Positions 9,052-63,592 are shown, counted from the first letter of the stretch. The stretch: DNA of 64,000 bases from Holothuria leucospilota (GCA_029531755.1 CM055977.1:30366229-30430228), one strand, 5' to 3'. Numbers and translations are program-made. The notes: generated by a model from the sequence alone, not told the origin.

Positions 9052-9150
9052 TTAGGACTCGTTGATAGGTTGAGGAATGTCGTACTCCTCTGGTTCAGCA
9101 TCCACCTTGGTGCATTCAGCAACCGGCTCTCCTTCCTCCACTGCCTTGCT

Positions 9151-9405
9151 CTAGCACCAGATGCAGGCCCACTCGATGACTCCCTCTTCCTCCACTGCTC
9201 CAGCATACTCTTCTTCAGTGACCCCGGTGTTGCATCCCAGATGTTGCCACCGGGAACAGCCGTCACACTGTATAGCCTTTTCTTCTTCTTGCACAGTGCC
9301 TGAACAATGAATGCAGTATTCAGTTGCCATTCTCAAGTTGTAGTTGTAAGTGATATATTCCAAATATAATCCTTTGGTTGAACGTCGATAACTGACATAA
9401 CTCAC
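9151..9405 (-). CDS. MULE transposase N-terminal segment with PHD-type zinc finger
   Basis: ORF CIHCSGTVQEEEKAIQCDGCSRWQHLGCNTGVTEEEY...IEWACIWC shows a C4HC3 spacing typical of PHD fingers. It is in a different frame from the downstream segment, so either an intron or a frameshift separates them. Confidence 0.5.
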   Translation of the reverse strand: MSYVSYRRSTKGLYLEYITYNYNLRMATEYCIHCSGTVQEEEKAIQCDGCSRWQHLGCNTGVTEEEYAGAVEEEGVIEWACIWC

Positions 9406-10138: not shown

Positions 10139-10260
10139 GAGGGGGCGAACTGGTAGGTACTTGGGGGCGAAACGATTTCCAGTTTCTGGCAAACTGGCAA
10201 GGGGGCGAACTGGTTGGGGGCGAACTGGCAAGGGGGCGAAACAACTGGGTACCACCTCGA
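10139..10260. repeat. MULE right TIR (GGGGGCGAACTGG repeats)
   Basis: Reverse complement of the left TIR. 'gggggcgaactgg' occurs four times and 'gggggcgaaac' twice. Confidence 0.75.
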
Positions 10261-10261
10261 C

Positions 10262-10800
10262 TATGCAGCCCAGGCTTGGAGTACGTCCCTTCTATGAAAA
10301 GGACAAGTTTCTTTTAGAGCAGGTTCAGAGGAGAGCTACTCGCCTTATACCCGAGGTGAAACACCTACCTTATCATGTTAGACTTAAGCATCTTGGGCAT
10401 ACCACCCTGGAGTTGAGAGAGATTAGGGGGGACATGCTTCAGGTGTACAAATTTCTCTCTGAAAGGAATCCTTTGTCATCTTGCAATTATTTAAAGGTTC
10501 AAAGTAATTCTCAGGTTCGAGGCTATTGTAAAAAGCTAGTTAAGTGTTTTGCAAGGCTGGACATTAGGAAGTTCAGCTTCTCTCATAGAGTTGTTAACGA
10601 GTGGAATAGTCTGCCTGAGTGGGTAGTTAACTCCACATCTGTGCACTGCTTTAAGGTTAACAAGTTCAGCTTCCATAACTGTGGTCGAATCTAATTGGAC
10701 TGGGCTCGTTTGGTGTTGGTTGGTCGTTTATTTTCAGTTAAGGTTGTATGGACTTCAGGGCATCTTATGGGGCCTTAGCCCTCCTTTGCCCTTTAACCAG
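10262..10800 (+). mobile_element. 3' fragment of a non-LTR retrotransposon (CR1/L2-like LINE ORF2 tail)
   Basis: ORF 10161-10694 reads PFYEKDKFLLEQVQRRATRLIPEVKHLPYHVRLKHLGHTTLELREIRGDMLQVYKFL...FSHRVVNEWNSLPEWVVNSTSVHCFKVNKF. This is the characteristic C-terminal tail of CR1/L2/Jockey-type reverse-transcriptase ORF2 ('SYEERLKxLGLxSLExRRxRGDLIxxYK...RVVxxWNxLP...FKxxLD'). The ORF's ATG lies inside the MULE TIR and is not part of the LINE. Confidence 0.7.
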
Positions 10801-13800: not shown

Positions 13801-16096
13801 TGTGTGGCATTGACTTGACATGGATAAAGACATTCATGTCCTCCTTTTTAAAAATTTGGAAATGGTCACCCTACCCCTGCACCCCATGTCCAGGCACAAA
13901 GCATTCATCAGCGTGAAGTTTCGAACTTAACAATTAAATTCCTTGTGCAATTAACAAACTATGCAATCTGGCTAGCCGCTTTCTAGCTGTAGCCAAAATT
14001 CTTTCTAACATTGTCATTTTGTAGCTGTTTAGGACCCTATTTGGAGAGCAAGTACTTTTGATGTAGAGGAAAAAGATGTGACCAGTGAATTTTGTACTTG
14101 TTGACTTCGTTGGGATATTTTGGCTGATTAGTGGGCAAAAACTACTGAAAATGAAAACAGAACAATGGCAGCTCATTGTATGTACTCCCATTTCCCATGA
14201 TTTCTTGTGTGCATTTAGTCTGCCATTGAAGCTGGCAGAAATCAGGAGGTCACATTTAGTTCTTTGCACACAGCACTCACATAGGAAACAAATCCTCTAG
14301 AAGGCTGTACAGTGGACAGATAAGATCACACAACCCTTGTGCATGTTTGATTTTAAAATACTGTGATTGATCATTCACAGGTGCTCTGGACACATAACCC
14401 TGTACCTGTACATGCTTACTGAAGGGTGAAATAGCAATTATCAGTGTCACACTTTCTCATGTTGACCATTCATTTTCATTTTCATTTATTTTCCACAAAC
14501 ATCATAAAAATGTAGACAGATATAAATTTACAGAAAGCAGAAAGACCATAACATTGTAGCAGTGCAGAGAGATTGAGGAGATGTTATGATCATGCAAAAA
14601 GGATCATCTTTTGTAGCCAAAATGTTGACCTGGCCAGGCCACTAGGATAAAGCCTTAGCCAGAGATGAGTTCTAATAATTATTGTGTGTGTGACTGTACC
14701 TAACAGCAACTCTGTCTGCTGCTGCCTTTGGCTGATTTCATTTCATGGTATCCTGTGGACAATTTTCTACCCTACTTCATGTACTGCTTACACATATCTG
14801 ATGACCCTTTTATTTCTGACTTGGGAATCATTAGTTAACCTACAATAGATCCAGGGATGTAGTTACGGTGGGCAGTGCTGGGCGGTGACACCCATCACTT
14901 GATATTCCTGCCCAGCAGTCCAGGCAAACACACCTCTCCCCGCCCACCACAAATCTGCCTACCGAGACCTAAAACTAGCCCTAAATTTACTCCCTGAAGT
15001 AAAATGAAGGCAAAATGAAAAGTGAATGGCTGAAAAATGGGTTAGATGCCATGGGGGTGAGGTGAGGTGCTTTCCCCAGATCAGACATTTACCCGGCACT
15101 CAAATTTGGCTAGCTATATCCCTGTATAGATCGTTTTTCCCAAACTCTAAATGCACATTTTTGGTATCTACTGTAGCAATGTTTGTAGCTAACATATGTT
15201 TTGCAATGCAGCTTTGGAATCAATGAAATTCCCCTCCTCTTAATGTTTTGGCCCACAGATAGCATGATCTGGCTTCTTGTTTGCTTTACAAATGACAAAG
15301 TCATAACGGAAAACTTGTGAGATACAAAGTGAATGTGTTTAAAAAACATTTTAAATCAGTAGCTTGGGCTATAATTTGGCCATAAGAATGATGCTTTGTA
15401 CATAAATTATTGATGTTTGATGATAGTATTGAAATACTGCAGCGTAACTGCCCTAGTTTTGAGAACGAGGTCGTGTGATGCTATGTAAGTCTTTGGTAAT
15501 GTGAAAAATGTCTTGGTCCATTTTTAGCTAGATTCCTAACTTAGGCCTTGTCCTAGTCAAACTCGAAGTGGCTGCCTGACTAGCCTAGGAATCTATTTCT
15601 GGCAAGATTCCTGGGTATGTACCTAGCCAAGTAAGTATTTATTTCTTGGCGAAGGGTAATTGGAATTTGCCCGCCCGGCGGACGTGTATTACTCCAGCAC
15701 CTATATTGGCTGCACTCGTAATACAAACGTCTGTAAACTTTCGCAACAATTCTTCGTCAAACTGCATAAATACTGTACCCTCTTAACTATTCATATATAC
15801 GATCACAACAAACAGAATTATAAATATTCAAGAAATAAATGACTAAAGCAAGTCATGATTATCAGGCTGTTTCAAACAACAAATGTCAATGGGGTTTCAG
15901 TGTGTGATTTCGCCTGCTTCAAGCTCACACAATGAAGTCCCATTGACTTACTGTGTAAAAGTGAACATTGTAGCTGACACAGAAGCCTTTTTGTGCAATA
16001 TGAATATTCATTGAAACCAATCAACAGTCAAGAGAGTAAAATTGTATTGGGCTCATAAATATAACAAAATTGGATGATCTCTGTCATTGTTCGCAG

Positions 16097-19349: not shown

Positions 19350-20804
19350 GTAAGAATGTCAAGCTGTGTATGCAGGACAGTTTTGACTTTAATCTGAAAG
19401 TTTTAGGGGCACATTCACCCCATGGGTATTGCCCTTTGCCACCCCTTCCCCCCTGCTGAATTAAAAAAGAATACTAATGCAAACCCAACTCATTGCCACT
19501 CCCCCTTTTATCTTTTCAGTGAAAAAAAATCCCCAATTCAGAACACTCATCTGTTTCCTTTTTCTACTAGAAAAGAATGCAGGTGATATGTATCACTGAT
19601 ATAGTTCAAAGGTAAACATTTGAAATTCCACATCCAGTTTAGGTTTTGGGCATCCAGAGTTCAAAACTGGTGTCTACACTTTGATTGATGTAACAGTGAG
19701 CAAGTTTAACAAATTTAAACAATGCTTTCAAAGAACAAGCCATTCTGAGTGGATAATGACATGTTCAAATCACTGAAATGTGACTGTGTAGCCTAGGCAC
19801 AGCAGACCATGGAGTTACTACCTCAAAACTCCAAGAGCAGATAGAGTGCTTAGATTACAAGGAGATAGTATTACAAAGTTTCCTCAGCAGAACAGGCCTT
19901 GGGTAGTTAAAATAATACACATGTTAGCCTATTGTATGTCTAGGAGGTGCAAGACATAAAATGGAGGACAGATTACGAGTAAAGTAAGTTAAGAGGACTG
20001 CATCTGTCTGGGACAAGAAATATTTGCTTGTAACAACTAACTTACTTGACCATCAAGTGCAACCATCTCTCTTGCACACTTGTGTCCTTGCTGGAGAATT
20101 TGGTGCTGTCTTAGTATGCACTTCAGGCCCATAGCAAGACAAAATACTAAAAGGGGGCCAGATAACTTCCAGGGGGCAAATATTTTTCAGGGGGCAAGAT
20201 TCACTTAAATGTATTATAGGCCATGATAATTTCTCATTTTCAAGGGAGGTGAAAGCAAGTTTTTCAGGGGGCAACTTCCCACCCCCCAGCCCTCCTTTTA
20301 TCTAAGGACTGGCTGCACATAACTTTAACAGACTCTGATTTTCCCATAATAAACCCACAGTAAAATTCCTATGGTCCCTAAAATTTGTGATTTGTCACCC
20401 AACTTTGATTTGAAAAGAGGGCAAGTTAAACTTTACTTCCAAGTTTGTGAAAGCCACTCAGATGAGTTAACGAAGTGAGAAGAACAGTTGATTAAACATC
20501 CTAGTGGCAGGACAGAGATGAGACAACACTTTCATATTTTCAAATTACATGAAGGCATGAAGTACATTGTTCAGGAAGGTGAGCTGCTGTACATGTAGTT
20601 TCTTCACTCTTCAGTTGCAGACTATTGGCCTTGGAGAAAAACTGCTCAGTAGGAGGTGCTGAGGAAGTTAATGAGATTTTAGGAGGGGCTATAAGTAAAC
20701 ACTTTGAGAATGTGAATTGTTTTGGATGAGTAAATTGGCCTTAAAAAGATTCAGTTGAACTCACTGAGAAGAAAGTATTCTTCTAGTTAATTTGTACTAA
20801 TTCC

Positions 20805-20872
20805 TCCTCCTCCTCCTCCTCCTCCTCCTCCTCCTCCTCCTCCTCCTCCTCCTCCTCCTCCTCCTCCTCCTC
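20805..20872. repeat. (CCT)22 microsatellite
   Basis: Perfect trinucleotide run 'cctcctcct...'. Confidence 0.95.
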
Positions 20873-28774: not shown

Positions 28775-31700
28775 GTGAGCGGTGATCTCCATATCTTTAA
28801 GGAAAAATTCTGGGCATTTTGATGGAAAGACCCAGTATAAAGATAGACTCTGATCTTCATTTGGTATACCAGTGCTTCACCAGTATAAAGTACATTGGTT
28901 TTACTTGCCCTTTCAGACCATACTCTCTCTCTTAAAAAAAAAAAAAAACAACACCATCACCATTGAATTTAAAGGTAGCCATGGTATATTTCTTTGCCCT
29001 AGGATAAGTGGTCGGGTTTGAAGATATTTGACACACATCCTAAACAATTTTCCACCCTGCCTGGCCTAGCTGATTTGATCCACCATTTATCTTTGAGATT
29101 TCATGGATGGTTGGGCCGAGGTAATTTTATCATAAACGTACTTGCAGCACATGTTTACTGCTGGTGTTCATTCCTGTCGAGCATATGAATATGACATCAC
29201 AGAACAGAAAGTACGCCCTCAGCTTAGGTAAGGGCATAGCATTACAACTTAATTCAACACAAATACAGACAGCTTAATTTTTGTACCAGTGGGGTATGTG
29301 CCTGTCTACATGTCCATGCAAAGGTGACATTGTGTGAACAGTATGTGTCCCAAAATCATGAAACTTGTCTAGCTAGTTTGAATGTTTGTCCTTTAATGTA
29401 TGTCAGCATAACATAAGTGCATAGGGTGAATACAGAACTCTGGGCCAGTCAGTGGCACAAGCTTCAAAAACTATCAGTGTGTCATTGATTCCCGACAATA
29501 GATGTAAAAATAATTCGGAGGACAGTCGATCCTGTGTTCAATGGAGAGAAAAATCATGTAATGAATTGTGTGACAGCCAGCTGCCACAGTGGCAGATAAG
29601 ATTGATGTTAATGTCACCTAGCTTGGCTAACTTTCCTCCCATATTTCCTAGTGACCATATTTTGCCATGTGTTGAGCGATGGCTGTGTTGTGCCAGTACT
29701 ATGGTATGGTAGGCTGATGTGGGTTGTGAGGATGAAAAATTTGGGTTAAGGATGTCCATATAATTATGTCAGTTATGATAATATTACATGTGATGAAGTT
29801 TGTGAAGAAGAATTTAATAGACCTAGCCTAGGCGTAGGCCTAGGCCTACAATAGAAAGTTATTACATAAAAGCTTTAGGCCTAAATCTGGGCTTTACTCA
29901 GTATGGGTGCATGGTGCATACAATAATGAAAGGGTTAATTAACTTCTCTTTTTAAACTATTTATATATTTTAATACCATACACCCTATTTTTGAAATAAT
30001 GCAGGCCTTAAATTTTTGAAATAGGGCAAGCCTTAAGGCCAGTCATTTTATGCCACAGAGCAACCACAAATGTGAGCAGAATCCATAAAATTAAAATGAC
30101 ATGTAAGGTGGCCTCCAATTTGTTTTCGTGTGCTTAAAAGATGGAAACTTTTTCATTACAAAGATCATTATAGAGAGGAGAACCGCAGGTTACTCTTGAC
30201 TGAAAACCCCATCTTGCTATGAATCACCTGGGATTTGACCCAGATCTTCCAATTTGCGAAAACTCAGTGCTCCAAATACAATCACCCATACCAACTGAGC
30301 CATAGTTGTGGTTAATATTTACACCTTTCAAGTGTGAGTGTGGTTCATACCCTTCCTCTTTTTTCTAAGCCTTCATGATGCAGAGGAGGTATGTATTGCA
30401 ATCTTGTCCGAGTGGGAGAATTACTTCAACTGTAATTATCAAACCTATTATCAGTGTCATGGTCAAGTGCCATGGCCAAGAAGACAAGGGCAGTGGTTTT
30501 TGAAGCACTGAAGCTTAGAGATTAGGGGGCTCAGGGTGTGATCTAGGCAGGGTCATGGTAAGGTGGGTATTTCATCTAAGAGCTGTTGTCAATGGTTAAT
30601 ATCCATTTGAAATTACTTCTTAATTGGAAGATACCAAACTAGATGTAAATATTATGCTATAATATTGGAAGCCACCTGACAAAACTTTATAATTTATATT
30701 TCCTTGCAGACTTCTCCCCTATTTACACTGCATTGCCAGAATGGCAGATGCTCCAAGACATTTCCATTCACTTAATAGGGATCATGCATTGTGTTCAGTT
30801 TCGTAAGAGTATGAATGTATGTTGCAGGGAGGGAGGATGGAAGTAAAGAACTGTGTGTGTTTTTTTCAAAATAGAGTAAAGGACTATGATTAGTTGATAT
30901 TTCACAGCTTTCAGACTATGCTCTGAGATGGAGGGAGGTGGTCTCAAGTAGTGGTAGGGTATGGTTTGTACACTTGTGAAAATATGAAAAAGAAAAAAAT
31001 GACTTCTTATGATCCTCTGCAAGAAAAAGATTTTTTTTCTATAATGCAGCCTACAACTCATCAGTAGCTTAAGCCTAAGGGCCCTTGTGTTTGCAAAGGG
31101 AAATAATTCCGCAAAACACAGCTCATTAAAACCATTAACAATCTTATAAAAAATTAATCAAATCATTCTTTAACCTCTGAAGCTCATGACACCCACAAGA
31201 TCAAGCTTTCGTAATATCTCCTGGTAAGCGATCTCTTTAAAGTTGACAGACAGTGTTTGTTAAGTGAGGATTAGTAAATACACTTGATCATATTATGACA
31301 GCAAGGTTACAGCTTCTTGTCTTACCAGGGGATAGATTAGATAATACTGGATGGGATCAGATAAGATTTATAACATGCCATTATATGTTGTTATGTGGCA
31401 GTTTCATGTGATCAGTGTACGTATGTTTTATAACTGTCATTAAAAAAATTTTTTAAAAGTTTGTCTCAGTTAGAGAGGATAAGTGCAGATTAGTAAATAT
31501 GCTTGATCATATTATGACAGCAAGGTTACAGCTCCTTGTTTTGCCGGGGTTTAGATTAGATAAGACCGGATGGGATCGAATAAGATTTATAATGTGCCAT
31601 AATGTGTTGTTATGTGACAAATTCATGTGAATTTCATGTGTGTGTACCTATGTTTTATAGCTGTCATTAAAAAGCATTTTAAAAGTTTGTCTCAGTTAGA

Positions 31701-32282
31701 GACTGGTGGAACAAAACAATGTGGTGTTCATGAGTTGACCTTTGACCTTTAGCCTCTGAGTCACATCAAGGAGACGAGTGCTCTGGCTTGCCCTTTAAGA
31801 ATTCACAAAGTGATATCTTGCTTAGTAACAATTCATTTATTGTGTTGCACAAAAACTAATGCATTGCATGACGTTTTGGATGGCTTGTGTACTGGCTGTG
31901 TTAGCTTTTAATACATTTAGACAGTTCTACCCAGTTTTGGTTAATTATGAAGATTTCTTGAACTCCCAGACATTGCGTGGTGGTTCTTGATGCACCAAGT
32001 ACTCAGGCTGGTATTGTTTCTTGTGACATTAGCACTTGAAAGCATACGAAATCAGTTTCATTCATAATTTGGGCTTAGAAAAAAATTCCTACTTCCTACT
32101 TTTCATGCTAAGACAAGTTAATCCATATATGAAAGGCAAGCAAGCATGGTCAAGCACTGGTTCACTTCACTGCAACATGAAGAAACAAATCTTTATGGGG
32201 AGGTGCTTAGTACATAAGGGGACTCATCTTCCAGTTAATCCCACCTGGTGAAACTGAATTAACCTTTTCAAGTTTTACTTGT

Positions 32283-33785
32283 TGGTTTCGATGATAAGAG
32301 AAACCTATGCAACTGTGCTGGCGTGTGTATGTATGTATGGGTGTATGTGTGGGGGTGTGTGTGTGTACGTGTGTTTGTGACACTTGCTCGTTAACACGAT
32401 ATCTCAAGAAGGGAAACTCTGACACTTCTCAAACTTGGTGCATAGGTGCCCCATATTGAGAGGAAGAACCCTATTGTTTTTGGTGGGGGTCGAAGGTCAT
32501 CTGGGGTCACCAGGGGTCAAACTCTGAAAACCTTGTTAACACAATATCTCAAGGTAGAAAACCTGGACAAATTTCATACTTAGTAGGTAGATGTGTTATG
32601 GAAAGAGGAAGAACCCTATTGATTTTGGTGGAGGTCAAAGGTCATTTGGGGTCACCAGGGGTCAAACTCTGAAAACCTTGTTAACACGATATCTCCATGT
32701 AGGAAGCTTGGATATATTTCATACTTAGTATGTAGATGTGTTATAGAAAGAGGAAGAACCCTATCGATTTTAGTTTAGGTCAAAGGTCATTTGGGGTCAT
32801 CGGGGGTCAAACACTGAAAACCTTGTTAATACAATATCTCGATGTAGGAAGCTTGGATAAATTTCATACGTAGTATGTAGATGCCTTATGGTAAGGCAGA
32901 GAATCCGTTTTTTTTTGGTGGAGGTCAAAAGTCATCTGGGGTCACCAGGGGTCAAATGCTGAAAACCTTGTTAACACTATATCTCGATGTAGGAAGCTTG
33001 GATAAAATTCATACGTAGTATGTAGATGTGTTATATGAAGGGGAAGAACTTTATCAATTTTAGTGGTCAAAGGTCATTTGGGGTCATAGGGGGTCAAACT
33101 CTGAAAAACTTGTTAACACAATATCTCAAGGTAGAAAGCTTGGATGAATGTCATACTTAGTATGTAGATGCATTATGGGAAGAGGAAGAACCCTATTGTT
33201 TTTGGTGGAGGTCAAAGGTCATCTGGGGTCACTGGGGGTCGAACATTGAAAACCTTGTTAGCACAATATCTCAAAGTAGAAAGCTTGGATGAATTTCACA
33301 CTTAGTATGTAGATGCGTTATGGGAAGAGGAAGAACCCTGTTGTTTTTGGTGGAGGTCAAAGGTCACTTGGGGTCACTGGGGTCAAACTGAAGACCTTGT
33401 TAACACGCTATCTTTATGTAGGAAGCATGGATAAATTTTGTGCATAGTATGTAGATGAGTTATGGAAAGGCAAAGAATGCTATTGTTTTTGGTGGAGGTC
33501 CAAGGTCATCTGGAGTCACCGGGGGTCAAACCCTGAAAACCCTGGTAACATGATATCTTGACATAGGAAGATGGATGAATTTCATACTTAGTATGTAGAT
33601 GCCTACTGGTGAGAGGAAGAACCCTATCACTTTTGGTGGAGGTCATTTGGGGTCATCAGGGGTCTGGCCTTAAAAAAGTTTGCAGTCACTTCATACTACT
33701 GTAATTCCATGATACCATAGGTGTTTATGAATCATCGAAACCACAATGCATTTTTGCATTCTGGTTTTATTGAAACAGCAATAAT
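32283..33785 (+). mobile_element. Satellite-bearing composite element A: head, (TG)n, then about 150-bp monomers x8, then tail
   Basis: Head 'ttggtttcgatgataagagaaacctatgca'. (TG)n at 32323-32385. Monomers 'gaggaagaaccctattgtttttggtgg.ggtcaaaggtcatctggggtcaccaggggtcaaactctgaaaaccttgttaacac.atatctc.aggtag.aagcttggat.aatttcatacttagtatgtagatg..ttatgg' from 32430 to 33660. Tail '...gaatcatcgaaaccacaatgcatttttgcattctggtt'. Head and tail share the inverted 12-mer ggtttcgatgat / atcatcgaaacc. Confidence 0.75.
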
Positions 33786-33908
33786 TTTCTAATTTGTCTG
33801 TGGTGTTTTTTTTTCAATAATTTGCAGTCAGCCAGCTTTAATTCAACTGGTTCATTGAGTAATAAATTTTAATTTTATGCTATTTCTTTGTAATCCTGTT
33901 TTTGATAG

Positions 33909-33969
33909 GAAAGCCATTGCTTTGGCTGAAAATGAAGGCATTTATGTCAGGAATTTACAGAGTGGTGAG
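33909..33969 (+). CDS. MVP: MVP exon (RKAIALAENEGIYVRNLQSGE)
   Basis: Acceptor 'tttttgatag' and donor 'gtaaga'. Matches MVP PLDENEGIYVQDVKTGK. Follows a 5.1-kb intron that holds a satellite-bearing element. Confidence 0.85.
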
Positions 33970-35233
33970 GTAAGATTAAGTTCCTTGTTGTCATGGTAAC
34001 CAGAATTAATCTGTAGGTATCTTACACCATTGCACATAGATAGTACAGTAGCTTCAGAAGCCTGTAAGAACTGGTATAGATTGAAGATAGCTTGCTATGT
34101 TACCTGCAGCTAGATTGAAATAAAGTCATATTTCCTTCATTATCTGTATTTTTCTATCATTTATGCATCACAGTATACTAAATTTAAATTCACCAAAAAG
34201 CCTTCACTGGCTCTCAAATAGTTAACCATCTAGTGTTGAAACCAGTGTTGGAAGTCTAAGGCCAGCCTCAGCTTTGAGACCAGTTGTTGGGGTCTTGGCC
34301 TTGGGTACAAGGCCTGGACAACAATTATATGGGTGGAGATCTTGAAGCTGGTCTTGGCCCCCAGGCCAATTTCTGACCTCTGTCCTGTTCACAGTGGCCT
34401 CAACTACTCCTGTGGTAGAAACCAACTACAGACTGCAAGAAAGCATATTTCTTTAGTACTTGAAACTATCTTTTGTCGACAGTTGTCATGGTAGAGAGAA
34501 GTTTATGTTACAACTGTATATCCAAGCTTGTCAGTGTAATCAAACCTTTCTTTTTACTGATTAATTTTCATTCATCAATGCTGTGTTTTGGAAGTTTTCC
34601 TGCTGTACAAAGCTTATCTTCCAGCTGTTGTGAGTGTATTGCCATTCGTACACTAAAACTTCAACATAGGAAGCTACCATTGTTTTGCAAACTGTTGCAT
34701 GTCTGTAGATAGACCTCAGTTCCTTTTGCTTTAAATGCTATGTAAGTTGTGTTACTCTCAATGCCATACATCAAGGGGTGGGGAACCTCTGGTCTGTGGA
34801 ATATACATTCATCCAGCCTGAATGACAGTTCAAAATCCAAATTCTTAAAGTCATGAATGATTATTTGTAATCCATTACTCTACTTGCTTCCCATTTGCTG
34901 AAATTACATTTACGTAATATTTTACTCTGTACTATGTAATACTCCTACAAGTGCAGAAACCAAGTACATTGCACACAAAGCATGCTGTAGCATGCATGGG
35001 GAGCTGACCAGCATGTGAGATCGTTGCTTGGCCTGGGAATGATTTTGTTACAAGAAAATGGCCCTTGATATGAAAAAGTTCTCCAACCCTGCCATAGTAA
35101 GTTTATGTGTTGCTCATGCCAGAACCATTGTGTTAGCTTGACATAACGTTGTTACTGACTGTTATAAATTTCTGTCATTGCGTAATTAGGGTCATGTTCT
35201 GTACATATTTTTTGCACTTCCCCATCTTTTTAG

Positions 35234-35328
35234 GTGAGAGCTATCATGGGACCTCAGTCCTATCTGCTAACTGAACATGAACAACTCTGGAAGAAGGAAC
35301 TCCCAGAGGTGGTTGAAAAAATTTTAAG
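35234..35328 (+). CDS. MVP: MVP exon (VRAIMGPQSYLLTEHEQLWKKELPEVVEKIL)
   Basis: Acceptor 'atctttttag' and donor 'gtaata'. Matches MVP [32 protein letters not shown]. Confidence 0.88.
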
Positions 35329-35563
35329 GTAATAAAGAGAACATGAAATCAGCTGTTGTACTCATAAGCTAGGTAAGATTCCCAGGCACTTGATATATGT
35401 GGCTTGCCTGGAACTTTTTACAACCAGTTTAAGTTTTTTTGCATTTAACTTGTACACAGACTATTGATAAAGTCACAGTCAATGGTGTACAGCAATGTTT
35501 GCATCTTTGGAGGGTATGAAGAGGCTTTTCACTTGAGTTCAGTGCTTTTACACCATGCTGCAG

Positions 35564-35800
35564 TAACTGCAGTGGTCAAGTGGTTAGAGCATCTGACTTG
35601 CAGCCGGAAGGTCTAGGGTTCAAATCCTGGCCAGGTCATACCAAAGACTTTAAAAATGGAACCTACTGCCTTGGTGCTCAGCATAAACAATGGAGTAGGG
35701 AAAACAAGCCAGTGAGCCACAACTGGAAAAAAGGCTGTGGTCGTCTCGACTTGAACCAATTGGTTGGAAACTGGGACGTTAAACCTCATCTAACCTAACC
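35564..35800 (+). mobile_element. tRNA-derived SINE, copy 1, with 15-bp TSD
   Basis: tRNA-like head 'gcagtggtcaagtggttagagcatctgacttgcagccggaaggtctagggttcaaatcctggccaggtca'. Conserved body '...taccaaagactttaaaaatggaacc...aatggagtagggaaaacaagccagtgagccacaactggaaaaaaggc...ttaaacctcatctaacc'. Flanked by the direct repeat 'tacaccatgctgcag' at 35549-35563 and 35801-35815. Confidence 0.8.
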
Positions 35801-36353
35801 TACACCATGCTGCAGGTCACAACGCATGAAAACAAGGTGTGGTCAGCAGGACAGTAGATAAAATTGTGATACAAGGAAAGCACGATGCTCACAATGTCCA
35901 ACAAACAAAGGAGACGCATGGTTCAGTGAAATTGGTGAAAAACATACATCCAGTATATCTGGTAGTAGCTGTAGTAGTTAGGTATTGTAGTTTGTGTAAT
36001 GATGTAGACAGCAGGCTCAACTATTGTATTTTACTTTCTCTTTTTCATTATTTAGAGGGAATTGCATATTTTGGACTTCTCCTCGAGCTAGCACAACCTC
36101 TAGAGTTTCAGACTATTTTAAGTCCTCTTCATGAAATAATTGATGGAAGATGAAAAAGAAGACAGTAAAAAATATCTTCTGCTATTATTTTTCTTCTGAA
36201 TTCCTTTATTCCCAGCCTTAGTGATTGAAATTCTAGGGTACTGTTGGAATGCAAGTAAAGAGATTATCTGGAGTTGTTGCAAGTTTATTTCTTCTCTTGG
36301 CTTATTGTCAGATTTAAGTCATCTGCTTTTATTTGTCTCTCTTATCTTTGCAG

Positions 36354-36438
36354 ACATGGAGGTGGATACGGTGAAGGGGATATTCGAAAACTGGCCTACT
36401 TTGAAACTTCCATTGATACAGACTTTGCTGGTGACAAG
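36354..36438 (+). CDS. MVP: MVP exon (RHGGGYGEGDIRKLAYFETSIDTDFAGDK)
   Basis: Acceptor 'tatctttgcag' and donor 'gtaatt'. Phase-consistent. Corresponds to the variable linker region of MVP (human GQDPLADRGEKDTAKSLQPLA), so the call rests on frame continuity and splice sites. Confidence 0.7.
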
Positions 36439-36765
36439 GTAATTTCAGTATTTCAAGATGGAGTGTCTTCTAAAGTTTAGAGGTCAAAAGTTGGGTGTTG
36501 TAATTTGTTAAGGAGATTTTACATCTTTAATGAATGAATGTTACAATTATCACAAGATTAAAATGATAGCCAGTTCTGTTGCCATGAGGAGGTTATGGGA
36601 ATCGTGCCTCTCACCTGCCCTGAGGAGGTTGTAGGAAGTGTACCCTTCCCCGAATGAAACAAATGATGCAACAAAAATAGTCATGTGATTATTAACTTTT
36701 TGCATTTTGCCTCCACCTCTGCCCTCCCCCACTATTCATAGGAAAGCAAAATTGTGACAAGCATT

Positions 36766-36826
36766 TTTGGTTTCGATGAAAAGAGAAACCTATGCAGTCA
36801 TGATGGCGTGTGTATGTATGTGTGTA

Positions 36827-36868
<42 letters not shown>

Positions 36869-38440
36869 TGACACTTTGCTCATTAACACGATATCTCAAG
36901 AAGGGAAACTCTGACAGTTTTCAAACTTGGTACATAGATTCCCCATATTGAGAGGAAGAACCCTATTGTTTTTGGTGGGGGTCAAAGGTCACCTGGGGTC
37001 ACCGGGGGTCAAAACCTGAAAACCTTGTTAACACAATATCTCGAGATAGGAAGCTTAGATGAATTTCATACTTTGTATGTAGATGCGTTACGGTAAGAGG
37101 AAGAACCCTATCATTTTTGGTGGAGGTGAAAGGTCATCTGGGGTCACCGGGGGTCAAACCCTGAAAACTTCGTTAACACGTTATCTCAAGAAGGGAAGCT
37201 CTGACAGTTCTCAAACTTGGTACATAGATGCCCCATATTGAGAGGAAGAACCCTATTGTTTTTGGTGGAGGTCAAAGGTCACTTGGGGTCACCAGGGGTC
37301 AAACCCTGAAAACATTGTTAACACAATATCTTGAGGTAGGAAGCTTGGATGAATTTCATATCTAGTATGTAGATGCGTTATGGTAAGAGGAAGAACCCTA
37401 TCATTTTTGGTGGAGGTCAAAGGTCATCTGGGGTCCCCGGGGGTCAAACCCTGAAAACTGTTAACACGATATCTCAAGAAGGGAACCTCTGACAGTTCTC
37501 AAACTTGGTACATAGATGCCCCATATTGAGAGGAAGAACCCTATTGTTTTTGTTGGAGGTCAAAGGTCACCTGGGGTCACCAGGGGTCAAACCCTGAAAA
37601 CATTGTTAACACAATATCTTGAGGTAGGAAGCTTGGATGAATTTCATATATAGTATGTACATGCATTATGGTAAGAGGAAGAACCCTATCATTTTTGGTG
37701 GCGGTCAAAGGTCATCTGGGGTCACCGGGGGTCAAACTCTGAAAACCTTGTTAACATGATATCTCAAGAAAGGAAGCTCTGACAGTTCTCAAATGTAGTA
37801 CATGGATACCCCATATTGAGAGGAAGAACCATATTGTTTTTGGTGGAGGTCAAAGTTCACCTGGGGTCACCGGGGGTCAAACTCTGAAAACCTTGTTAAC
37901 ACGATATCTCAAGAAAGGAAGCTCTGACAGTTCTCAAACTTGGTACATGGATGCCCCATATTGAGGGGAAGAACCCTATTGTTTTTGGTGGAGGTCAAAG
38001 GTCACCTGGGGACACCTGGGGTCAAACCCTGAAAACATTGTTAACACAATATCTTGAGGTAGGAAGCTTGGGTGAATTTCATACTTTGTATGTAGATGCG
38101 TTATGGTGAGAGGAAGAGCCCTATCATTTTTGGTGGAGGTCAAAGGTCATCTGGGGTCACTGGGGGTCCAACTCTGAAAACCTTGTTAACACGATATCTC
38201 GAGGTAGGAAGCTTGGATTAATTTCATACCTTGTATTTAGATGCCTTATATTAAGAGGAAGAACTCTATCATTTTTGGTGGGGGTCAAAGGTCATCTGGG
38301 GTCACCAGGGGGTCAAACCCTGAGACAGAGCTGCCAACCAGCACGGATTTTTCCATATTCAGTACGGAAAATCATTGTAAATGTGGGAATACGGATTTTT
38401 CCTTGATAATCCGAATTTTGAATGAGTAAATAGGTCCTTT
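36766..38440 (+). mobile_element. Satellite-bearing composite element B: head, (TG)n, then about 10 monomers arranged as an alternating two-variant higher-order repeat
   Basis: Head 'ttggtttcgatgaaaagagaaacctatgcagtcatgatggcgtgtg', near-identical to the head of A. (TG)n at 36806-36878. Monomers alternate between a variant with 'ctctgacagttctcaaacttggtacatagatgcccc' and a variant with 'aggaagcttggatgaatttcatat.tagtatgtagatgc', so the period is about 300 bp. A distinct tail follows: 'gccaaccagcacggatttttccatattcagtacggaaaatc'. Confidence 0.75.
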
Positions 38441-39399
38441 CATGAACTTTGTTATTCTTTAGCCAACATATCAAAAGACTGAGAATAGACTACAGTATTT
38501 CACTTGTCTGTACAGTACTGTAGTATATTTATTTGAGCCCAGTAATCTATGCTGTTATGTTATTGGTTAAATTTTTGTCAACAAGTTGATGTTAAACCAA
38601 TCAGAAGATAGTTTGCAGCAGATCCATGACATCCATAAGCTACCGTATCATTGGTTGATCAGTTGTAAACAGATCCACTTTTAACCAATCAGAAACTGTG
38701 TTAAAAGCTAGTTTCTGAGTGCAGTGACAGACTATCACACATAGCCTGCCTGCCAAGGTCTGTTGAGCTGGCTGAGTAGCCCAACGTTAATGTTAGATTT
38801 GACTGTAACTGAATTGGAAAATTAGCACCATGAAATGGAATAAGCAAACTTACAGCAGGAATATCACAGTATGTTGTAATATGGCTCCTCTTCAGAGTAG
38901 CATGGTAGCAGAGTAGCATGGTAGCAGAGTAGCATGAGTAACTTTAGTGGAAAATTTACCAGGCAGATCAAGTTTTAACGTAGGCCTAGGCCTAACAGTT
39001 AGGGCCTAGGCCCTAGGCCTAAGTGTTGTTACAGAACCAACAACAAACATTAGCCTACACACACAATAACGTTAGACTCAGTACATAAATCTAATGCAGA
39101 GTTCCAGGTTTATGGGCTAGGCCTAGACAAAGTCCTAGTCCTGTGACTAAGTCCTAGCCTAACTGCCACAGTACGGGCTAGCCTAGGCCTAATTGTAGTA
39201 CAGTATGTATGGGCTGATAATAGAGGTAGGTTACTGTAATAGCTATGGCCTAGGCTAGGGCTAATCAAAGCAGTTATTGCCTGTCAAATGTTGGTACCCA
39301 TCATCTAAGTTTGTAGTATTTACAGAGAGATTTCTGTGACCAGCTGTGCATAGGCCTAGGCTAGGTTTATACTTATAGCTAGGCCTAGGCTAGACCTAG

Positions 39400-40244
39400 A
39401 CTAGTCCTTGAACAGGACCGTGTACTACGTTAACGGTGAACCTACTCCGTACCACGGTCCTTGTCCTGCCTACACAAAATTTCCGTTCATTAGCCGGTCT
39501 GCCAGCAGACCGGCATTCCTCACAGCTTAAAATATTCACCTATGATTACCATACTTTCCATGAACGTTCTTTGTCATTGCATCTATGCTTCTTGACCAGT
39601 TTTTCTTGGAATAGAGGGGAGCAAGAAGGTGAAATTTGGAGGTAAAAACTGACCTTAACACTAAGTCAGTTACAAGCTTTTAGAGTGCCGGTGCAGTCAC
39701 ATGACTGACTTCCCTGTAGAAACTTGTAACCAGGGTAGTATGCAGATGGATATAGTATGTCGTATAGATCATAGATGCACATTTTTCGACTTTGGAGAAA
39801 ATATTTGTATATTAGGAATGGATCTTCACCCCAAAACGGTAGATATTGACTTCAAAATCTGAAATCAAGAAAATGTAACAAAATTTAAGGAAATCCTGCA
39901 AATAATTTTAGGAAATTGGACATCAAAATGTGGAAGCGCTACCTTGGGCCATTCTGACAATATGGCTGCCGTTTATTGACGAATGTCGAAGCGAGTTTTG
40001 TGAGTTTTGGCCTTAGAACACACCTGTGAGCTGTGTGAATGCATATTTTTCTACAATATAATGGTAATAAACTGAGTTGCATGGTTTTAGAATCGGAGAA
40101 ATGACAGTTAGTTTAGGAACGATCAATTTCTGATAGATTTTCCTCTCAAACCTTAACTGCGGGGTTTTTTGTGTAGGCAGGACAAGGACTCTAGCGCGGA
40201 GTAAAACAAAGTGTACGTAGCATAGAGTCCTGTTCAAGGACTAG
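39400..40244. mobile_element. Non-autonomous DNA transposon or MITE (about 850 bp) with roughly 85-bp imperfect TIRs
   Basis: Left 'ctagtccttgaacaggaccgtgtactacgttaacggtgaacctactccgtaccacggtccttgtcctgcctacacaaaa' pairs with right 'ttttttgtgtaggcaggacaaggactctagcgcggagtaaaacaaagtgtacgtagcatagagtcctgttcaaggactag'. There are 17-bp and 22-bp perfect blocks ('ctagtccttgaacagga' and 'tccttgtcctgcctacacaaaa'). It sits in a CCTAGG-rich island. Confidence 0.65.
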
Positions 40245-40496
40245 ACCTAGACTAATGTTACTTAGGGCATTGCCAAGTATTTAGCATAGCCTCTAGGCTA
40301 TACTGTAACGTTAGGCCTTGGGAATACTTGGGATATTTTGCTTTTTGTCCTTTGGTGACCCGATGACTTTCTTGGGAAATTTTGCTTTTTGACCTCTCGT
40401 AACCCCAGATGACGATCTTGGGAATTTTTGGGAAATTTTGACCAGTGACTGAAAGATATGGGACATCATGGCATTATTTGGAATAGAACATATATC

Positions 40497-40575
40497 ATCG
40501 AAACCTCAATGCATTTTTGCATTCTGGTTGATTCCTTGCCGAAGGCAGGCAAGGAATCTATGTATTGGTGATGTC

Positions 40576-40606
<31 letters not shown>

Positions 40607-43090
40607 TGTGTGGGTGTGTGTGTGTGTGTATGTGACGCCTAGCTTGTAAACATGATATCTCGAGATAGCAATGACCAACACTTTTCATATTTAGTATATA
40701 GATTTGTCATGTTGAGAGGAAGAACCGTATTGTTTTTGGTGGAGGTCAAAGGTCATTTGAGGTCACCAGAGGTCAAAAACCGAAAACTTTGTAAACACGA
40801 TATCTCAAGGTAGCAATGACCGACACTTTTCATATTTGGTATACAGATTTGTCATGTCAAGAGAAAGAACCCTATTGTTTTTGGTAGAGGTCAAAGGTCA
40901 TCCGGGGTCACCGGAGGTTAATCTGCGAAAACCTCCTAAATGGCTTGTAAACACGATATCTCGAGATAGCAATGACCGACACTTTTCATATTTGGTATAT
41001 AGATTTGTCATGTCGAGAGGAAGAACCTTATTGTTTTTGATTGAGGTCAAAGGTCATCTGAGGTCACCAGAGGCTTAACTGCGAAAAACCTCGTAAACAC
41101 GATATCTCAAGTTAGCAATGACGGACACTTTTCATGTTTGGTATACAGATTTGTCATGTCAAGAGGAAGAACCCTATTGTTTTTGGTAGAGGTCAAAGGT
41201 CACCCGGGGTCACCAGAGGTTAATCTGCGAAAACCTCATAAACGGCTTGTAAACACGATATCTCAAGATAGCAATGACCGACACTTTTCATGTTTGGTAT
41301 ATAGATTCATCATGTTGAGAGGAAGAAGCCTATTGTTTTTGGTAGAGGTCAAAGGTCATCTTAGGTCACCAGAGGTTAAACGGCGAAAAACCTCGTAAAC
41401 ACGATATCTCAAGATTGCAAAGGCCGACACTTTTCATATTTGGTATACAAATTTGTCATGTCAAGGGGAAGAAGCCTATTGTTTTTGGTAGAGGTCAAAG
41501 GTCATCCGAAGTCAACAGAGGTTAATCTGCGAAAATCTTGTAAACGGCTTGTAAACACGATATCTCAAGATAGCAATGACCGACACTTTTCATGTTTGGT
41601 ATATAGATTCATCATGTTGAGAGGAAGAAGCCTATTGTTTTTGGTAGAGGTCAAAGGTCATCTTAGGTCACCAGAGGTTAAACGGCGAAAACCTCGTAAA
41701 CACGATATCTCAAGGTAGCAAAGGCCGACACTTTTCATATTTGGTATACAGATTTTGCATGTCAAGAGGAAGAACCCTATTGTTTTTGGTAGAGGTTAAA
41801 GGTCATTTGAGGCCACCGCAGGTTAAAAGCTGAAAAGGCTCGTAATCAAGCAATCTCAAGACAGGAATGACCGACACTTTTCATATGTGGTATATAGATT
41901 CATCATGTTGAGAAGAAGAACCCTAAAATTTTTGGTGAAGGTCAGAGGTCATTTGAGGTCACCTTAGGTAAAAGGCCAAAAAGCTCGTAATCACTATATC
42001 TCAAGATAGGAGTGACCAACACTTTTCATATTTGGTATATAGATATGTCATGTTGAGAGAAAGAACCCTATTGTTTTTGGTGGAGGTCAAAGGTCATTTG
42101 AGGTCACCAGAGGTCAAAGACCGAAAACCTTGAAATTGGGATATGTCAAGATAGGAATGGCGGATATAGATTTGTCATGTTGAGAGGAAGAATGCTATTG
42201 TTTTTGGTAGAGGTCAAAGGTCATCTGAGGTCACCAGAGGTTGAACTACAGAAACCTTGTAAATGGCTTGTAATCATGATATCCCAAGATAGCAAGGACA
42301 GCCACTTTTCATATTTGGTATATAAATTTGCCATGTTGAGAGGAAAAACCCTATCAATTTTAGTGGAGGTCAAGGTTATCTGGGGTTACCAGAGGTCAAA
42401 AAACAAAATTTCCCAAGAATTCCCAAGATTGTCATCTGGGGTCACTGGGATCAAAAGCAACATTTCCCAAGAATTCTCAAGATTGTCATCCGGGGTCACT
42501 ATAGGTTAAAAAGCAAAGTTTCCCAAGAATTCCCAAGATCATCATATGGGGTCATCAGAGGTCAAAAAGCAAAATATCGCAAGTATTACCAAGATTGTCC
42601 TCTGGTTTTACCAGACGTCAGAAGCAAAATTTCCCAAGAATTCCCGAGATCGTTATCTGGGGTTATCAGAGGTCAAAAAGCAAAATTTCCCAAAAATTCC
42701 CAAGATCGTAATCTGAGGTCACCAAGGGTCAAAAAGCAAAATTTCCCAAGAATTTCCAAGATTGTTATATGGGGTCACCAGAGGTCAAAAAGCAAAATTT
42801 CACAAGAATTCCCAAGATAGTGATCAGGGGTCACCAGAGGACAAAAAACAAAATTTCCCAAGAATTTTCAAGATCCAAGATCCATTGGAGTTGAATTCCT
42901 TTCAGGACACTTTCGTTTTTCTTTTTTGTTATATTTGGTGGGGTTCAAAGTTCATGTGAGGTCAGCAGAGGTGAAATTGTTAAAATATCGTAAAATGATG
43001 TAGTCAAGGTAGATAAATTTGAGGGATAAACCTCAGTACAACAAAGCATCCCCATTCGGCAAGGAATCACTAAGCCCTTAGGCTTTCTGG
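40497..43090 (+). mobile_element. Satellite-bearing composite element C, bounded by 'gattccttgccgaa' inverted repeats; a diverged 150-bp monomer array plus a 57-bp subrepeat array
   Basis: Left end 'atcatcgaaacctcaatgcatttttgcattctggttgattccttgccgaagg'. (TG)n at 40573-40640. About 11 monomers from 40690 to 42400 of 'gaggaagaacc.tattgtttttggtagaggtcaaaggtcat...gtaaacacgatatctcaag.tagcaatgaccgacacttttcat.tttggtata.agatt.gtcatgt'. Then about nine 57-bp units '(ggggtcaccagaggtcaaaaagcaaaatttcccaagaattcccaagat.gt.atct)' from 42400 to 42900. Right end 'cattcggcaaggaatcactaagcccttaggctttctggtt'. Left 'ctggttgattccttgccgaagg' is the inverse of right 'ccattcggcaaggaatcact'. Confidence 0.75.
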
Positions 43091-43323
43091 TTCTTTCTTC
43101 CAACCTTGAAATGTCAAAAACACTATGAACTTGGGTTAATTGGGGTTGCCAAGAGTGATATGTTTTGAAGGGGATGGGGGGGATGTAGTAAGCATTATGT
43201 AAAAGACAATTTTCTTTTTTGTTTTTCTTATTAAAGCAGACTCCTAAGTAAGAGAATATTCTATACGGATACTTAGATATTATGACAAGAGGAACAATAG
43301 CTCTTTTCCTGTATATCCTACAG

Positions 43324-47748: not shown

Positions 47749-51795
<4,047 letters not shown>

Positions 51796-51843
51796 TCTTT
51801 GGTCCACGCCTGTAAAGGTCTATGTTTTTACTTCTGATGTAGG

Positions 51844-52073
51844 TTAGTTAGATGAGGTTTAACAGCCCAGTGTCCAACCAAATGGTTCACGTCGGCCTTT
51901 TTTCCAGTTGTGGCTCACTGGCTTGTTTTCCCTTACTCCATTGCTTATGTGGAGCATCACACACAATGGCAGAAGGTTCCATTTTTGAAGTCTTTGGTAT
52001 GACTCGACCTGGGAATCGAACCCAGGACTCCCGCGTGAGAGGCGGATCCTGTACCACTAGACCAAACATGCGC
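51844..52073 (-). mobile_element. tRNA-derived SINE, copy 2 (minus strand), with 11-bp TSD
   Basis: The reverse complement has a tRNA-like head 'ggtctagtggtacaggatccgcctctcacgcgggagtcctgggttcgattcccaggtcgagtca' followed by the same body as copy 1 ('taccaaagacttcaaaaatggaacc...ggaaaacaagccagtgagccacaactggaaaaaaggc...ttaaacctcatctaac'). Direct repeat 'tctgatgtagg' at 51833-51843 and 52074-52084. Confidence 0.8.
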
Positions 52074-57566: not shown

Positions 57567-58658
57567 GTAAGGCTATCATTAGACTGGACTGGTAAAGCCA
57601 TCAGCTGTAGTACAGACCCAATTCATGTAACATCGTATTTTGTTAAGACAGTCATGTAGAAGGCACACATGGGGAGCTTGTATGTGTTTTACAGGTTAAA
57701 CTTACATAGCAGTGAGTATAAATGGTATGTTGTATGAGCATCAGTGCCACCACTGCGATTTATTGGTAACTTTGTGTATGTGTGTAAATCTGCGTCTTGT
57801 TTATTCCCCCAAGATGGCGGCTTTTTTACATTGCTACCGCAAAAGTGACCTAGGTGGAATCAGTCTGTTTTGAATAGAAAAATACTGTTTATGTGCATTA
57901 TGCCTGTTTACATTAGCTTTCAATAAGAAATAGTTCCTGTTATTCATCTGGATACCAATCTCTGTTCTATTTACTCTGAAGTCATGGTTATTTCAGGATG
58001 TCTCACAAATTTCAACTCTAAACTTTTGACTAGATTGACTTGAAGTATTGGTACACATGTGGCCTTTCTTCCGTGTTTTCAGCCGCATCCATCCACTCTC
58101 ACCCCTCCCCCCTGGCTCACAGCTCTACCCCTCTCTGGATCCCTGTCCTTTTCTTCCTCCTCCCCCTTCTAAAAAAGAAATGAAAGAGTTATATAAAGGT
58201 AATTTCTTTTCTGGTACTTAACTCTTTCTACCTTCCCAGCAGACATAGGTAGAAATCCAGGGGGGCATGGGAGGGATATATTCCCCTCCACCTTCCACTT
58301 TCCAACAGTGCCCCCATTTCAAATTTTCCTAAAGTAAATTTTTTTTCAAAGGCTCTTTATTCATTGACTTTTTCACACAAATCTCCTCCATAACCATTCT
58401 TTTGTCTGCATGTACTCAACGTCAAAACTTTACTCAGCACAAAGGAAAGAGTACAACAATTTCTAAACGTTTGCTCCATACCCATGGGTGGAAAAAATCA
58501 GGAATCTGGGGAGCTCCTTGCCAGGAAATTTTGGAATTTGGAGGGACATTTTTCTTTTTTGTACAGGAAATTTCAATAAAGAAATTGTGGGAAATTTGAC
58601 TTGCTATCCTGGAAATACACATTTTTCCAACCCTGCCTACACCCTTTTTATTTTGCAG

Positions 58659-58766
58659 GTGAAACTTCTCCAAAGTCTTGGAATTGAAACAACTCTCATT
58701 ACCGATGGCAACTCACCTATCAACTTATTCAACACCAGTGAAGGTTTAGTTGCAGGTTCCAAGTGA
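58659..58766 (+). CDS. MVP: MVP terminal coding exon ([35 protein letters not shown], stop TGA 58764-58766)
   Basis: Acceptor 'ttattttgcag'. Matches the MVP C-terminus [32 protein letters not shown]. In-frame TGA stop. Confidence 0.9.
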
Positions 58767-63329: not shown

Positions 63330-63592
63330 ACCGTTAAGCTAGAGATGACTTCCCAAGATCGTCATCTGAGGTCACCAAGGGTCAAAAAGCAAAATTTCCC
63401 AAGAATTCCCAAGATTTTTATATGGGGTCACCAGAGGTCAAAAAGCAAGAATTCCCAAGAACATCATCTGGGGTCACTAAAGGTCAAAAAGCAAATCTTC
63501 AAGAAAGATAAATTTGAGGGGTAAACCTCAGTCCAACAAAGCCTACCCATTCGGCAAGGAATCACTAAGCCTTGAGGCTTTCTGGTATTTCA
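63330..63592 (+). mobile_element. Truncated copy D of the right end of element C (57-bp subrepeats plus right terminus)
   Basis: '...cccaagatcgtcatctgaggtcaccaagggtcaaaaagcaaaatttcccaagaattcccaag...cccattcggcaaggaatcactaagccttgaggctttctggt' matches 42700-43090. Confidence 0.7.

Follow-up and report, generated by a model that had tools for sequence, protein, structure and literature searches.

Satellite arrays carried by probable non-autonomous Helentrons in and near the MVP gene of the sea cucumber Holothuria leucospilota

A stretch of 64,000 nucleotides from the black sea cucumber Holothuria leucospilota (GCA_029531755.1, CM055977.1:30366229-30430228), hereafter the window, contains the MVP gene on its plus strand (5237-58763) together with three satellite-bearing elements, termed A, B and C, and a fragment of a fourth, D. 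Judged by the organization of their sequence, these elements are very probably non-autonomous rolling-circle transposons of the Helentron type (HINEs), of the kind represented by DINE-1-like elements, pearl and Cg_HINE. As such they are a known type of element in a new animal group, the Holothuroidea, and involve no new mechanism. In a preliminary description of this DNA, the satellite had been assigned to a non-autonomous, pearl/CvA-like transposon as its carrier, and this view is borne out, with the modules of a HINE being present one by one.

According to Thomas et al. (PMC4067079), the ends of HINE/DINE-1 elements carry subterminal inverted repeats (subTIRs) of 12-15 bp, placed 2-4 nt from the 5' end, with a short inverted repeat nested in the 5' subTIR. 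Between the ends lie a microsatellite and central repeats, followed by a short 3' stem-loop. Insertion occurs at TT or T-rich targets that are left unmodified, T's are found at the boundaries, and copies cluster or lie end to end. Cg_HINE has been described with the same modules, and pearl has been re-categorised as a non-autonomous Helentron (Vojvoda Zeljko et al. 2020, PMC7492417).

The elements of the window follow one module order. On the left, TT is followed by the 5' subTIR with its adjacent hairpin, a core (CTATGYA...GATGGCG) and an imperfect (TG)n microsatellite. On the right, a junction (TGTGACRC..GCTYGTWAACACGAT) leads into an array of monomers of about 145 bp in constant orientation, a variable right flank and the 3' subTIR. 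Two nucleotides further on, a small palindrome follows, together with the octamer TTCTGGTT, common to both of the end families described below. The subTIRs are perfect inverted repeats of 13 bp in A (TGGTTTCGATGAT and ATCATCGAAACCA) and 15 bp in C, within the 11-15 bp expected of HINEs and with TT before both. The 5' subTIR lies 1-2 nt from the element end, and the 3' subTIR is separated from its own end by 24 nt in A and 23-24 nt in C.

Element A is a complete copy of 1.48 kb (32282-33766; plus strand, as for all features below unless noted), its ends being set by alignment with other copies. A T at 32282 precedes its 5' subTIR at 32283-32295, which is a perfect 13-bp complement of the 3' subTIR found by motif scan at 33731-33743. 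The inverted-repeat arm GAAACC (32300-32305) pairs with GGTTTC in the 5' subTIR to give a 6-bp stem with a 10-nt loop, and the sequence and head alignment then place imperfect (TG)n at 32323-32379, with the conserved junction ACACTTGCTCG after it. The left end thus reads ..acttg TT GGTTTCGATGAT aaga GAAACC TATGCA...GGC, (TG)n, ACACTTGCTCG. Nine monomers of about 145 bp follow (32391-33676; Tandem Repeats Finder (TRF) and profile hidden Markov model (HMM)), then 54 nt and the right end, ATCATCGAAACCA c AATGCAttttTGCATT CTGGTT, beyond which the flank begins ttattg. The palindrome AATGCAttttTGCATT and terminus TTCTGGTT, at 33746-33766, were located by folding and by the point at which similarity between copies ends.

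Element B (36767-38323) consists of a head, (TG)n and ten monomers, as delimited by TRF, motif scan and profile HMM. Its head, TGGTTTCGATGAA (36768-36780), is one mismatch from that of A, in agreement with the near-identity reported before, and is followed by an inverted-repeat arm (36785-36790), (GT)n (36808-36870) and the array (36883-38323).

Element C (40528-43092) is a complete copy of 2.56 kb with a 5' subTIR TGATTCCTTGCCGAA (40529-40543), an inverted-repeat arm GGCAAGGAATC (40548-40558) and (GT)n (40576-40634), so that its left end reads ..ctgg TT GATTCCTTGCCGAA ggca GGCAAGGAATC TATGTA...GTC, (TG)n, ACGCCTAGCTTG. By TRF and profile HMM, it contains 12 monomers in which lengths of 145/146 and 156 bp alternate (40647-42403) and a second array of 8.9 copies of a 56-bp unit (42378-42874). 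These are followed by 180 nt, including a degenerate monomer, and by the right end TTCGGCAAGGAATCA ct AAGCCcttaGGCTT TCTGGTT, next to the flank ctttc; the 3' subTIR TTCGGCAAGGAATCA, palindrome AAGCCcttaGGCTT and terminus TTCTGGTT together span 43055-43092. The inverted motif noticed earlier at the two ends of C is confirmed as GATTCCTTGCCGAA at 40530 on the plus strand and 43055 on the minus strand. Fragment D, the fourth copy reported at 63.3 kb, is a 5'-truncated copy (63347-63586) made up of 56-bp repeats and a right flank that has suffered an internal deletion; its 3' subTIR (63550-63563) is followed by a palindrome AAGCCttgaGGCTT whose loop differs from that of C, and by the end TTCTGGT. 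A G15 homopolymer occurs at 63226-63240, just 5' of D.

The head and tail motifs first reported were recovered at the positions given for them, at frequencies well beyond chance. GGTTTCGATGA has four exact sites in the window (32284 and 36769 on the plus strand, 33732 and 40495 on the minus strand) and GATTCCTTGCCGAA has three (40530 plus, 43055 and 63550 minus), and in both cases none of 100 shuffles reached the count. From their subTIR sequences the copies fall into two families, family 1 comprising A, B and an orphan tail at 40.5 kb, and family 2 comprising C and D. The orphan tail, ATCATCGAAACC T CAATGCATTTTTGCATTCTGGTT (40494-40529), is identical to the 3' end of A at 35 of 36 positions and abuts C. 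The outlines first given for the elements needed adjustment: A had been drawn to 33785 from 32283 and ends at 33766, B had been drawn as 36766-38440 and its family similarity ends at 38323, and C had been drawn as 40497-43090 and begins only at 40528-40530. The recurrence of the tail motif of A at this last edge had been seen correctly; it is, however, a family-1 3' end abutting a family-2 element and not the head of C.

The orphan tail may be the displaced 3' end of B or a solo fragment. No further similarity was found upstream of the tail, no significant similarity links that upstream sequence to the right flank of A or the sequence downstream of B to the right flanks of other copies, and no inverted partner was found for the sequence that replaces the B array at 38326. 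Nor did a nested transposon account for the space between B and the tail, where the only such feature is a separate element of about 860 bp (39390-40254). This resembles a miniature inverted-repeat transposable element (MITE) and has terminal inverted repeats of about 85 nt that are 86-87% complementary. An inverted fragment of the 56-bp sub-repeat, about 2.3 units on the minus strand, was detected at 40317-40440 by TRF, self-BLAST and profile HMM.

The boundaries of the elements were examined by aligning seven tails and six heads from different loci, with the copies outside the window (L002-L010) being taken from ENA and JGI contigs. Similarity starts at TT plus the subTIR and stops right after TTCTGGTT, and the sequence outside these boundaries is unrelated between copies. 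At least two T's precede all five aligned family-1 and family-2 heads, the 5' flanks are T-rich in five of five, and six of the seven tails end in TT. When three complete copies were checked for flanking direct repeats, no target-site duplication was seen beyond the T runs. T-rich or TT sites that are not duplicated are a feature of HINEs. A search of 31.5-43.5 kb against the window by self-BLAST found no shared non-repeat flanks.

This last result bears on whether the arrays are an ordinary local satellite or segmental duplication inside MVP that has never been mobile. Three arrays in the same orientation within 11 kb would fit such an origin, but the non-repeat flanks are not shared, two different end families are involved, and the same ends and monomers are present at unrelated loci and on 18 scaffolds. 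A local origin is accordingly extremely improbable, and neither it nor a confinement of the ends to this locus, the two findings that would have overturned the first description, is borne out.

A second reading holds that the elements are MITEs, which would have arisen by deletion from a DDE transposon of the cut-and-paste type, flanked by terminal inverted repeats, and would carry an internal satellite by chance. The perfect 13-15-bp inverted repeats near both ends lend themselves to this reading, and pearl-type elements were originally described as MITEs (PMC7492417). A MITE is expected to have its inverted repeats at both extreme ends and a target-site duplication of fixed length. The 3' repeat, however, stops 24 nt short of the conserved end, and the two ends differ in structure, with a hairpin at the 5' end and a palindrome plus TTCTGGTT at the 3' end. 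Target-site duplications are again lacking beyond T runs, and three copies (D, L005 and L006) are 5'-truncated with exact 3' ends, which is untypical of cut-and-paste elements. A MITE is thus quite unlikely.

The same truncated copies with intact 3' ends could instead be read as the product of incomplete reverse transcription, in which case the elements would be retroposons, either resembling short interspersed nuclear elements or derived from elements without long terminal repeats (non-LTR), with internal tandem repeats. DINE-1 itself was once allied with non-LTR elements (PMC4067079). Against this, there is no head derived from a tRNA or another RNA family, the whole window containing no tRNA gene or Rfam family; the 3' end has no poly(A) or simple-repeat tail, target-site duplications are missing, and inverted repeats join the two ends. 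Retroposition is for these reasons highly improbable.

The end sequences also separate these elements from canonical Helitrons, which begin with 5'-TC, finish with CTRR-3', carry a palindrome of 16-20 nt at a distance of about 11 bp from the latter, and insert between A and T (PMC4067079). A non-autonomous canonical Helitron (Helitron-N) would likewise be non-coding, lack target-site duplications, have a palindrome near its 3' end and occur in clustered or end-to-end copies. The copies studied here, however, start with TTGG.. or TTGA.. rather than TC, end in CTGGTT rather than CTRR, and have T-rich flanks rather than a junction of A and T, so that the Helitron termini anticipated earlier are not those observed. 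Moreover, subTIRs are a feature of Helentrons and not of Helitrons (PMC4067079). A Helitron-N is therefore very unlikely, and the initial label of "Helitron-N or MITE-like" is refined to the Helentron type; neither the canonical Helitron nor the MITE definition suits the ends.

With the HINE reading preferred, the structure of the ends can be considered more closely. Folds were computed as single-stranded DNA and compared with shuffles. A hairpin in which a short inverted repeat pairs with the 5' subTIR, itself a HINE feature, occupies the same position in all six head variants, though their sequences differ; its stem measures 6 bp in family 1, compared with 11 bp in family 2. The folding energies are -4.0 kcal/mol for A (z = -4.4), -11.8 kcal/mol for C (z = -5.8), -5.6 kcal/mol for L004 (z = -4.5) and -5.3 kcal/mol for L009 (z = -3.0). 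At the other end, where HINEs have a 3' subTIR followed by a short palindrome, the family-1 palindrome AATGCAttttTGCATT folds at -7.9 kcal/mol (z = -4.3), and both C and D have the family-2 palindrome AAGCCnnnnGGCTT, each with a loop of its own. Apart from the value given for L009, the z of the 5' hairpins and of the family-1 palindrome ranges from -3.1 to -5.8, better than shuffles.

Several observations weigh against the HINE assignment. The family-2 palindrome has a stem of only 5 bp and does not exceed shuffles in stability (z = -0.9 and -0.3), the 6-bp stem of the family-1 hairpin falls slightly below the 7-12 bp reported for Cg_HINE, and the 3' subTIR is 24 nt from the end compared with about 38-60 nt in mite HINEs. 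Element B has no recognisable 3' end, the orphan tail standing 2.2 kb downstream of it, and the 3' end of D has a single T. Targeting of TT and an unmodified target are judged from inspection of flanks at about seven ends. Lastly, no autonomous Helentron with matching ends turned up, the genome not having been searched. Within the window, there is no open reading frame (ORF) for a Rep/helicase with endonuclease, the only transposase being a MULE/FLYWCH one.

Copies elsewhere were recovered by sequence and by translation. L004 holds a complete family-1 copy, in which cccTTTTT precedes GGTTTCGATGAT, (TG)n, about 12 monomers and TCATCGAAACCACAATGCATTTTTGCATTCTGGTT, with ttttctagg beyond. A second element of a third head type lies 2.2 kb downstream in the same orientation (10130-12329 and 14540-14648). 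The truncated copies in L005 and L006 have intact family-1 3' ends. In L002, a family-2-like head follows a T run, and a monomer fragment is found about 270 bp 5' of this new head (9764-9854; 10120-10902). Clustering of HINE copies is seen outside the window as well. The order of (TG)n followed by an array of about 145 bp is common to A, B, C, L002 and L004, in line with the HINE arrangement of a left-flank microsatellite and then tandem repeats in fixed orientation. A complete but more diverged relative occurs in L009, a JGI marine metagenome contig, with monomers of about 128 bp, a short TG-rich tract and ends that form a fourth co-varying pair. Across at least four families, then, the two ends of an element co-vary, which supports an end requirement that is structural rather than sequence-specific.

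As a translated probe, a 92-aa ORF read through the C array matched 54 predicted proteins, including 27 clusters of H. leucospilota "hypothetical proteins", as well as ORFs on ENA metagenome contigs. The 27 clusters sit on 18 chromosome-scale scaffolds of different sizes, in a species whose assembly has 23 chromosomes (PMC10120082). Many dispersed copies are a further HINE feature (L002-L009 and these 18 scaffolds), and the heads and tails are thus not unique to the MVP locus, the same ends being present in L002, L004, L005, L006 and L009. The array ORFs were considered as genes and rejected because the periods of 145 and 156 bp are not multiples of 3; no Pfam match was found for them. No fewer than 27 of the annotated H. 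leucospilota "hypothetical protein" clusters are translations of the satellite; they are likely gene-model artefacts and should be masked as repeat. The proteins derived from monomers (P0122-P0172 and P0181-P0183, for example HOLleu_28923, HOLleu_07151 and HOLleu_07124) are 56-147 aa long and have no Pfam domain.

Related arrays also appear in open-ocean metagenomes, namely L007 and L008 (Tara Oceans / marine) and L009 and L010 (JGI Ga0308014 and Ga0308008), where sampled larvae or tissue of echinoderms are the presumed source. Scanning the JGI metagenomes with the family-1 tail gave no match, and scanning them with the monomer core gave two contigs.

The arrays themselves make up the shared (TG)n plus satellite architecture that had been recognized from the start along with the conserved heads and tails; the monomer is about 145 bp rather than the ~150 bp first estimated, and A, B and C contain 9, 10 and 12 monomers, respectively. 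TRF detected 145-bp arrays at all three elements. In A, the array runs from 32459 to 33645 or 33664 with 8.2 copies and a score of about 1500. In B, a 145-bp period with 9.9 copies spans 36883-38323 and a 290-bp period scores 2100. In C, periods of 145 and 156 bp cover 40646-42159 and a 302-bp period scores 2127. The same program reported the (GT)n tracts just 5' of the arrays in B and C, the 56-bp array of C and, at 63350-63494, further repeats of this length. When 57 monomers (nine arrays, all end families) were combined into a profile HMM, it detected no further monomers elsewhere in the window. It also showed that the 56-bp unit contains monomer positions ~106-139 as its first ~34 nt; the extra sub-repeat array of C is thus real, with a unit of 56 bp instead of the 57 bp given earlier.

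Mean monomer identity is 78% between A and B, 65% between A and C and 69% between B and C, which fits the figure of about 70% estimated by eye for the divergence of C. Within A and B, six monomers (A1, B1, B3, B5, B7 and B8) form an alpha type with mutual identities of 88-97%, and all others are beta. The array of A has one alpha-type monomer followed by beta-type monomers, and that of B is mostly alpha/beta dimers, a 290-bp higher-order repeat that corresponds to the two-monomer repeat already noted there. The array of C likewise alternates its 145/146-bp and 156-bp monomers as a 302-bp higher-order repeat, which had gone unremarked. Monomers B3 and B5 are 97% identical, as are C5 and C7, in comparison with the 78% between A and B; monomers have therefore been amplified locally by unequal exchange or slippage, and the local higher-order repeats are younger than the divergence between copies. 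The heads of A and B are ~87% identical and their first monomers, A1 and B1, 93%. The number of monomers per array differs by copy, from about 4 to 12.

Across the same 57 monomers, including those of L002-L007, conservation is highest in the block GGTCAAAGGTCA. It lies within four direct RGGTCA half-sites with spacings of 1, 4 and 4 nt (AGGTCA-a-AGGTCA-tctg-GGGTCA-ccgg-GGGTCA). The three arrays hold 112 of the 140 plus-strand RGGTCA sites in the window and 18 of its 19 perfect direct-repeat sites with 1-nt spacing (DR1), AGGTCAAAGGTCA. Direct repeats of RGGTCA at 1 and 4 nt are the DR1 and DR4 layout of nuclear-receptor response elements, and protein binding has been proposed for conserved boxes in other satellites. 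Selection on the block through binding of a host nuclear receptor, the transposition machinery or a chromatin protein is nonetheless an unlikely reading of this sequence pattern. The plain alternative is an internal sub-repeat of about 10 bp conserved by homogenisation. If a host nuclear receptor did bind, the element would spread clusters of hormone-response-like sites into introns genome-wide.

A mechanism for these elements can be proposed largely from what is known of the family. A Helentron Rep/helicase-endonuclease encoded elsewhere would act in trans to nick the element ends, and a single-strand rolling-circle copy would be inserted at a T-rich (TT) site without target duplication, with the 3' palindrome serving as a stop or terminator signal. 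Junctions between a family-1 tail and a family-2 head could arise from insertion beside an existing 3' end or from read-through past one, and the same end-to-end pattern has been noted for Helitrons in bat and maize (Thomas et al., PMC4067079). The arrays then expand and shrink through unequal exchange or slippage, so that the element most likely acts as a vehicle that scatters short satellite arrays over all or most chromosomes, including the three insertions in MVP introns.

The closest counterparts are the bivalve elements Cg_HINE (PMC7492417), pearl/CvA, DTC84 and MgE, which have the module order seen here. In Cg_HINE, the left flank similarly combines a 5' subTIR (11-12 bp) with a complementary inverted repeat and a microsatellite. 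Next comes a satellite-like core whose orientation is fixed, and the right flank closes the element with its 3' subTIR and palindrome. The bivalve elements also have in common with those of H. leucospilota T-rich or TT targets, the lack of target-site duplications, families whose ends co-vary, the presence of two arrays in some elements, and insertions in introns. In contrast, the host here is a holothurian and thus an echinoderm; its microsatellite has the dinucleotide unit (TG)n and not one of the mostly 4-nt motifs (GTCY etc.) of Cg_HINE; the monomers are ~145 bp compared with ~160-170 bp in bivalves; and the spacer from microsatellite to monomer is conserved at ~11 nt, whereas in Cg_HINE it varies from 10 to 500 bp. 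Because the host is a deuterostome, only architecture is claimed as shared with the bivalve family (Cg170/HindIII/BIV160).

With DINE-1/HINE elements (Thomas, Vadnagara and Pritham 2014, PMC4067079), the common traits are subTIRs, an inverted repeat with its 5' arm nested in the 5' subTIR, a 3' stem-loop, a microsatellite, central repeats, a preference for TT, boundary T's and clustered copies. The tandem-repeat core forms most of the element in H. leucospilota, and the likeness is structural, sequence similarity not being expected. Within the same phylum, PMC4067079 lists as DINE-1-like, with ~1000 copies, the Tsp family (Cohen et al. 1985), which belongs to a sea urchin, Strongylocentrotus purpuratus. 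That survey reports Helentron proteins in sea urchins and a sea star and has no holothurian. Literature searches found no relevant description of holothurian satellites or Helentrons, and the H. leucospilota genome paper mentions neither Helitrons nor satellites (PMC10120082). Satellite arrays borne by HINEs have already been well documented in bivalves and Drosophila, and the present elements extend this picture of HINEs seeding and dispersing short arrays to a deuterostome class, the Holothuroidea. They open no long-standing question.

The position of the copies relative to MVP rests on exons located by tblastn with a human MVP sequence, after which a protein search gave echinoderm MVPs. A Logan MVP transcript is near-identical to the window exons, and its cluster includes H. 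leucospilota KAJ8025971.1, which matches the window exons exactly except for residues at exon edges. The intron that holds element A is bounded by exons at ~28.7 and 33.9 kb, and B and C share the one bounded by exons at ~36.44 and 43.32 kb. There are thus three copies in two introns as first described, but these introns are not adjacent, three exons intervening (33907-33975, 35234-35329 and ~36346-36438). The last coding exon (58656-58763) precedes fragment D, which thus lies downstream. Relative to MVP, each of the four copies has the sense orientation.

Other repeats occupy the same gene. Intron 1 contains a MULE-type DNA transposon (5668-10245) with 45-nt terminal inverted repeats that are 96% complementary and composed of 16-22-bp sub-repeats. 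Its ORF at 8125-9051 on the minus strand matches the Pfam MULE transposase and FLYWCH zinc finger domains, and a T-rich 151-bp tandem array (5902-6540) lies within the element. In the intron between the 46.0- and 53.0-kb exons, a near-perfect palindrome of about 3.5 kb (48000-51534) has arms that are 95-96% complementary and a perfect (TA)72 tract at its center (49684-49827); a transposon of the foldback type and an artefact of long-read assembly are the two explanations considered for it. A dispersed repeat of ~170 bp is present as inverted copies in separate MVP introns (35635-35807 and 51835-52003, 83% identity), and a local direct duplication joins 31283-31476 and 31502-31702 at 85% identity. 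A perfect (TCC)23.7 microsatellite is located in an MVP intron at 20802-20872.

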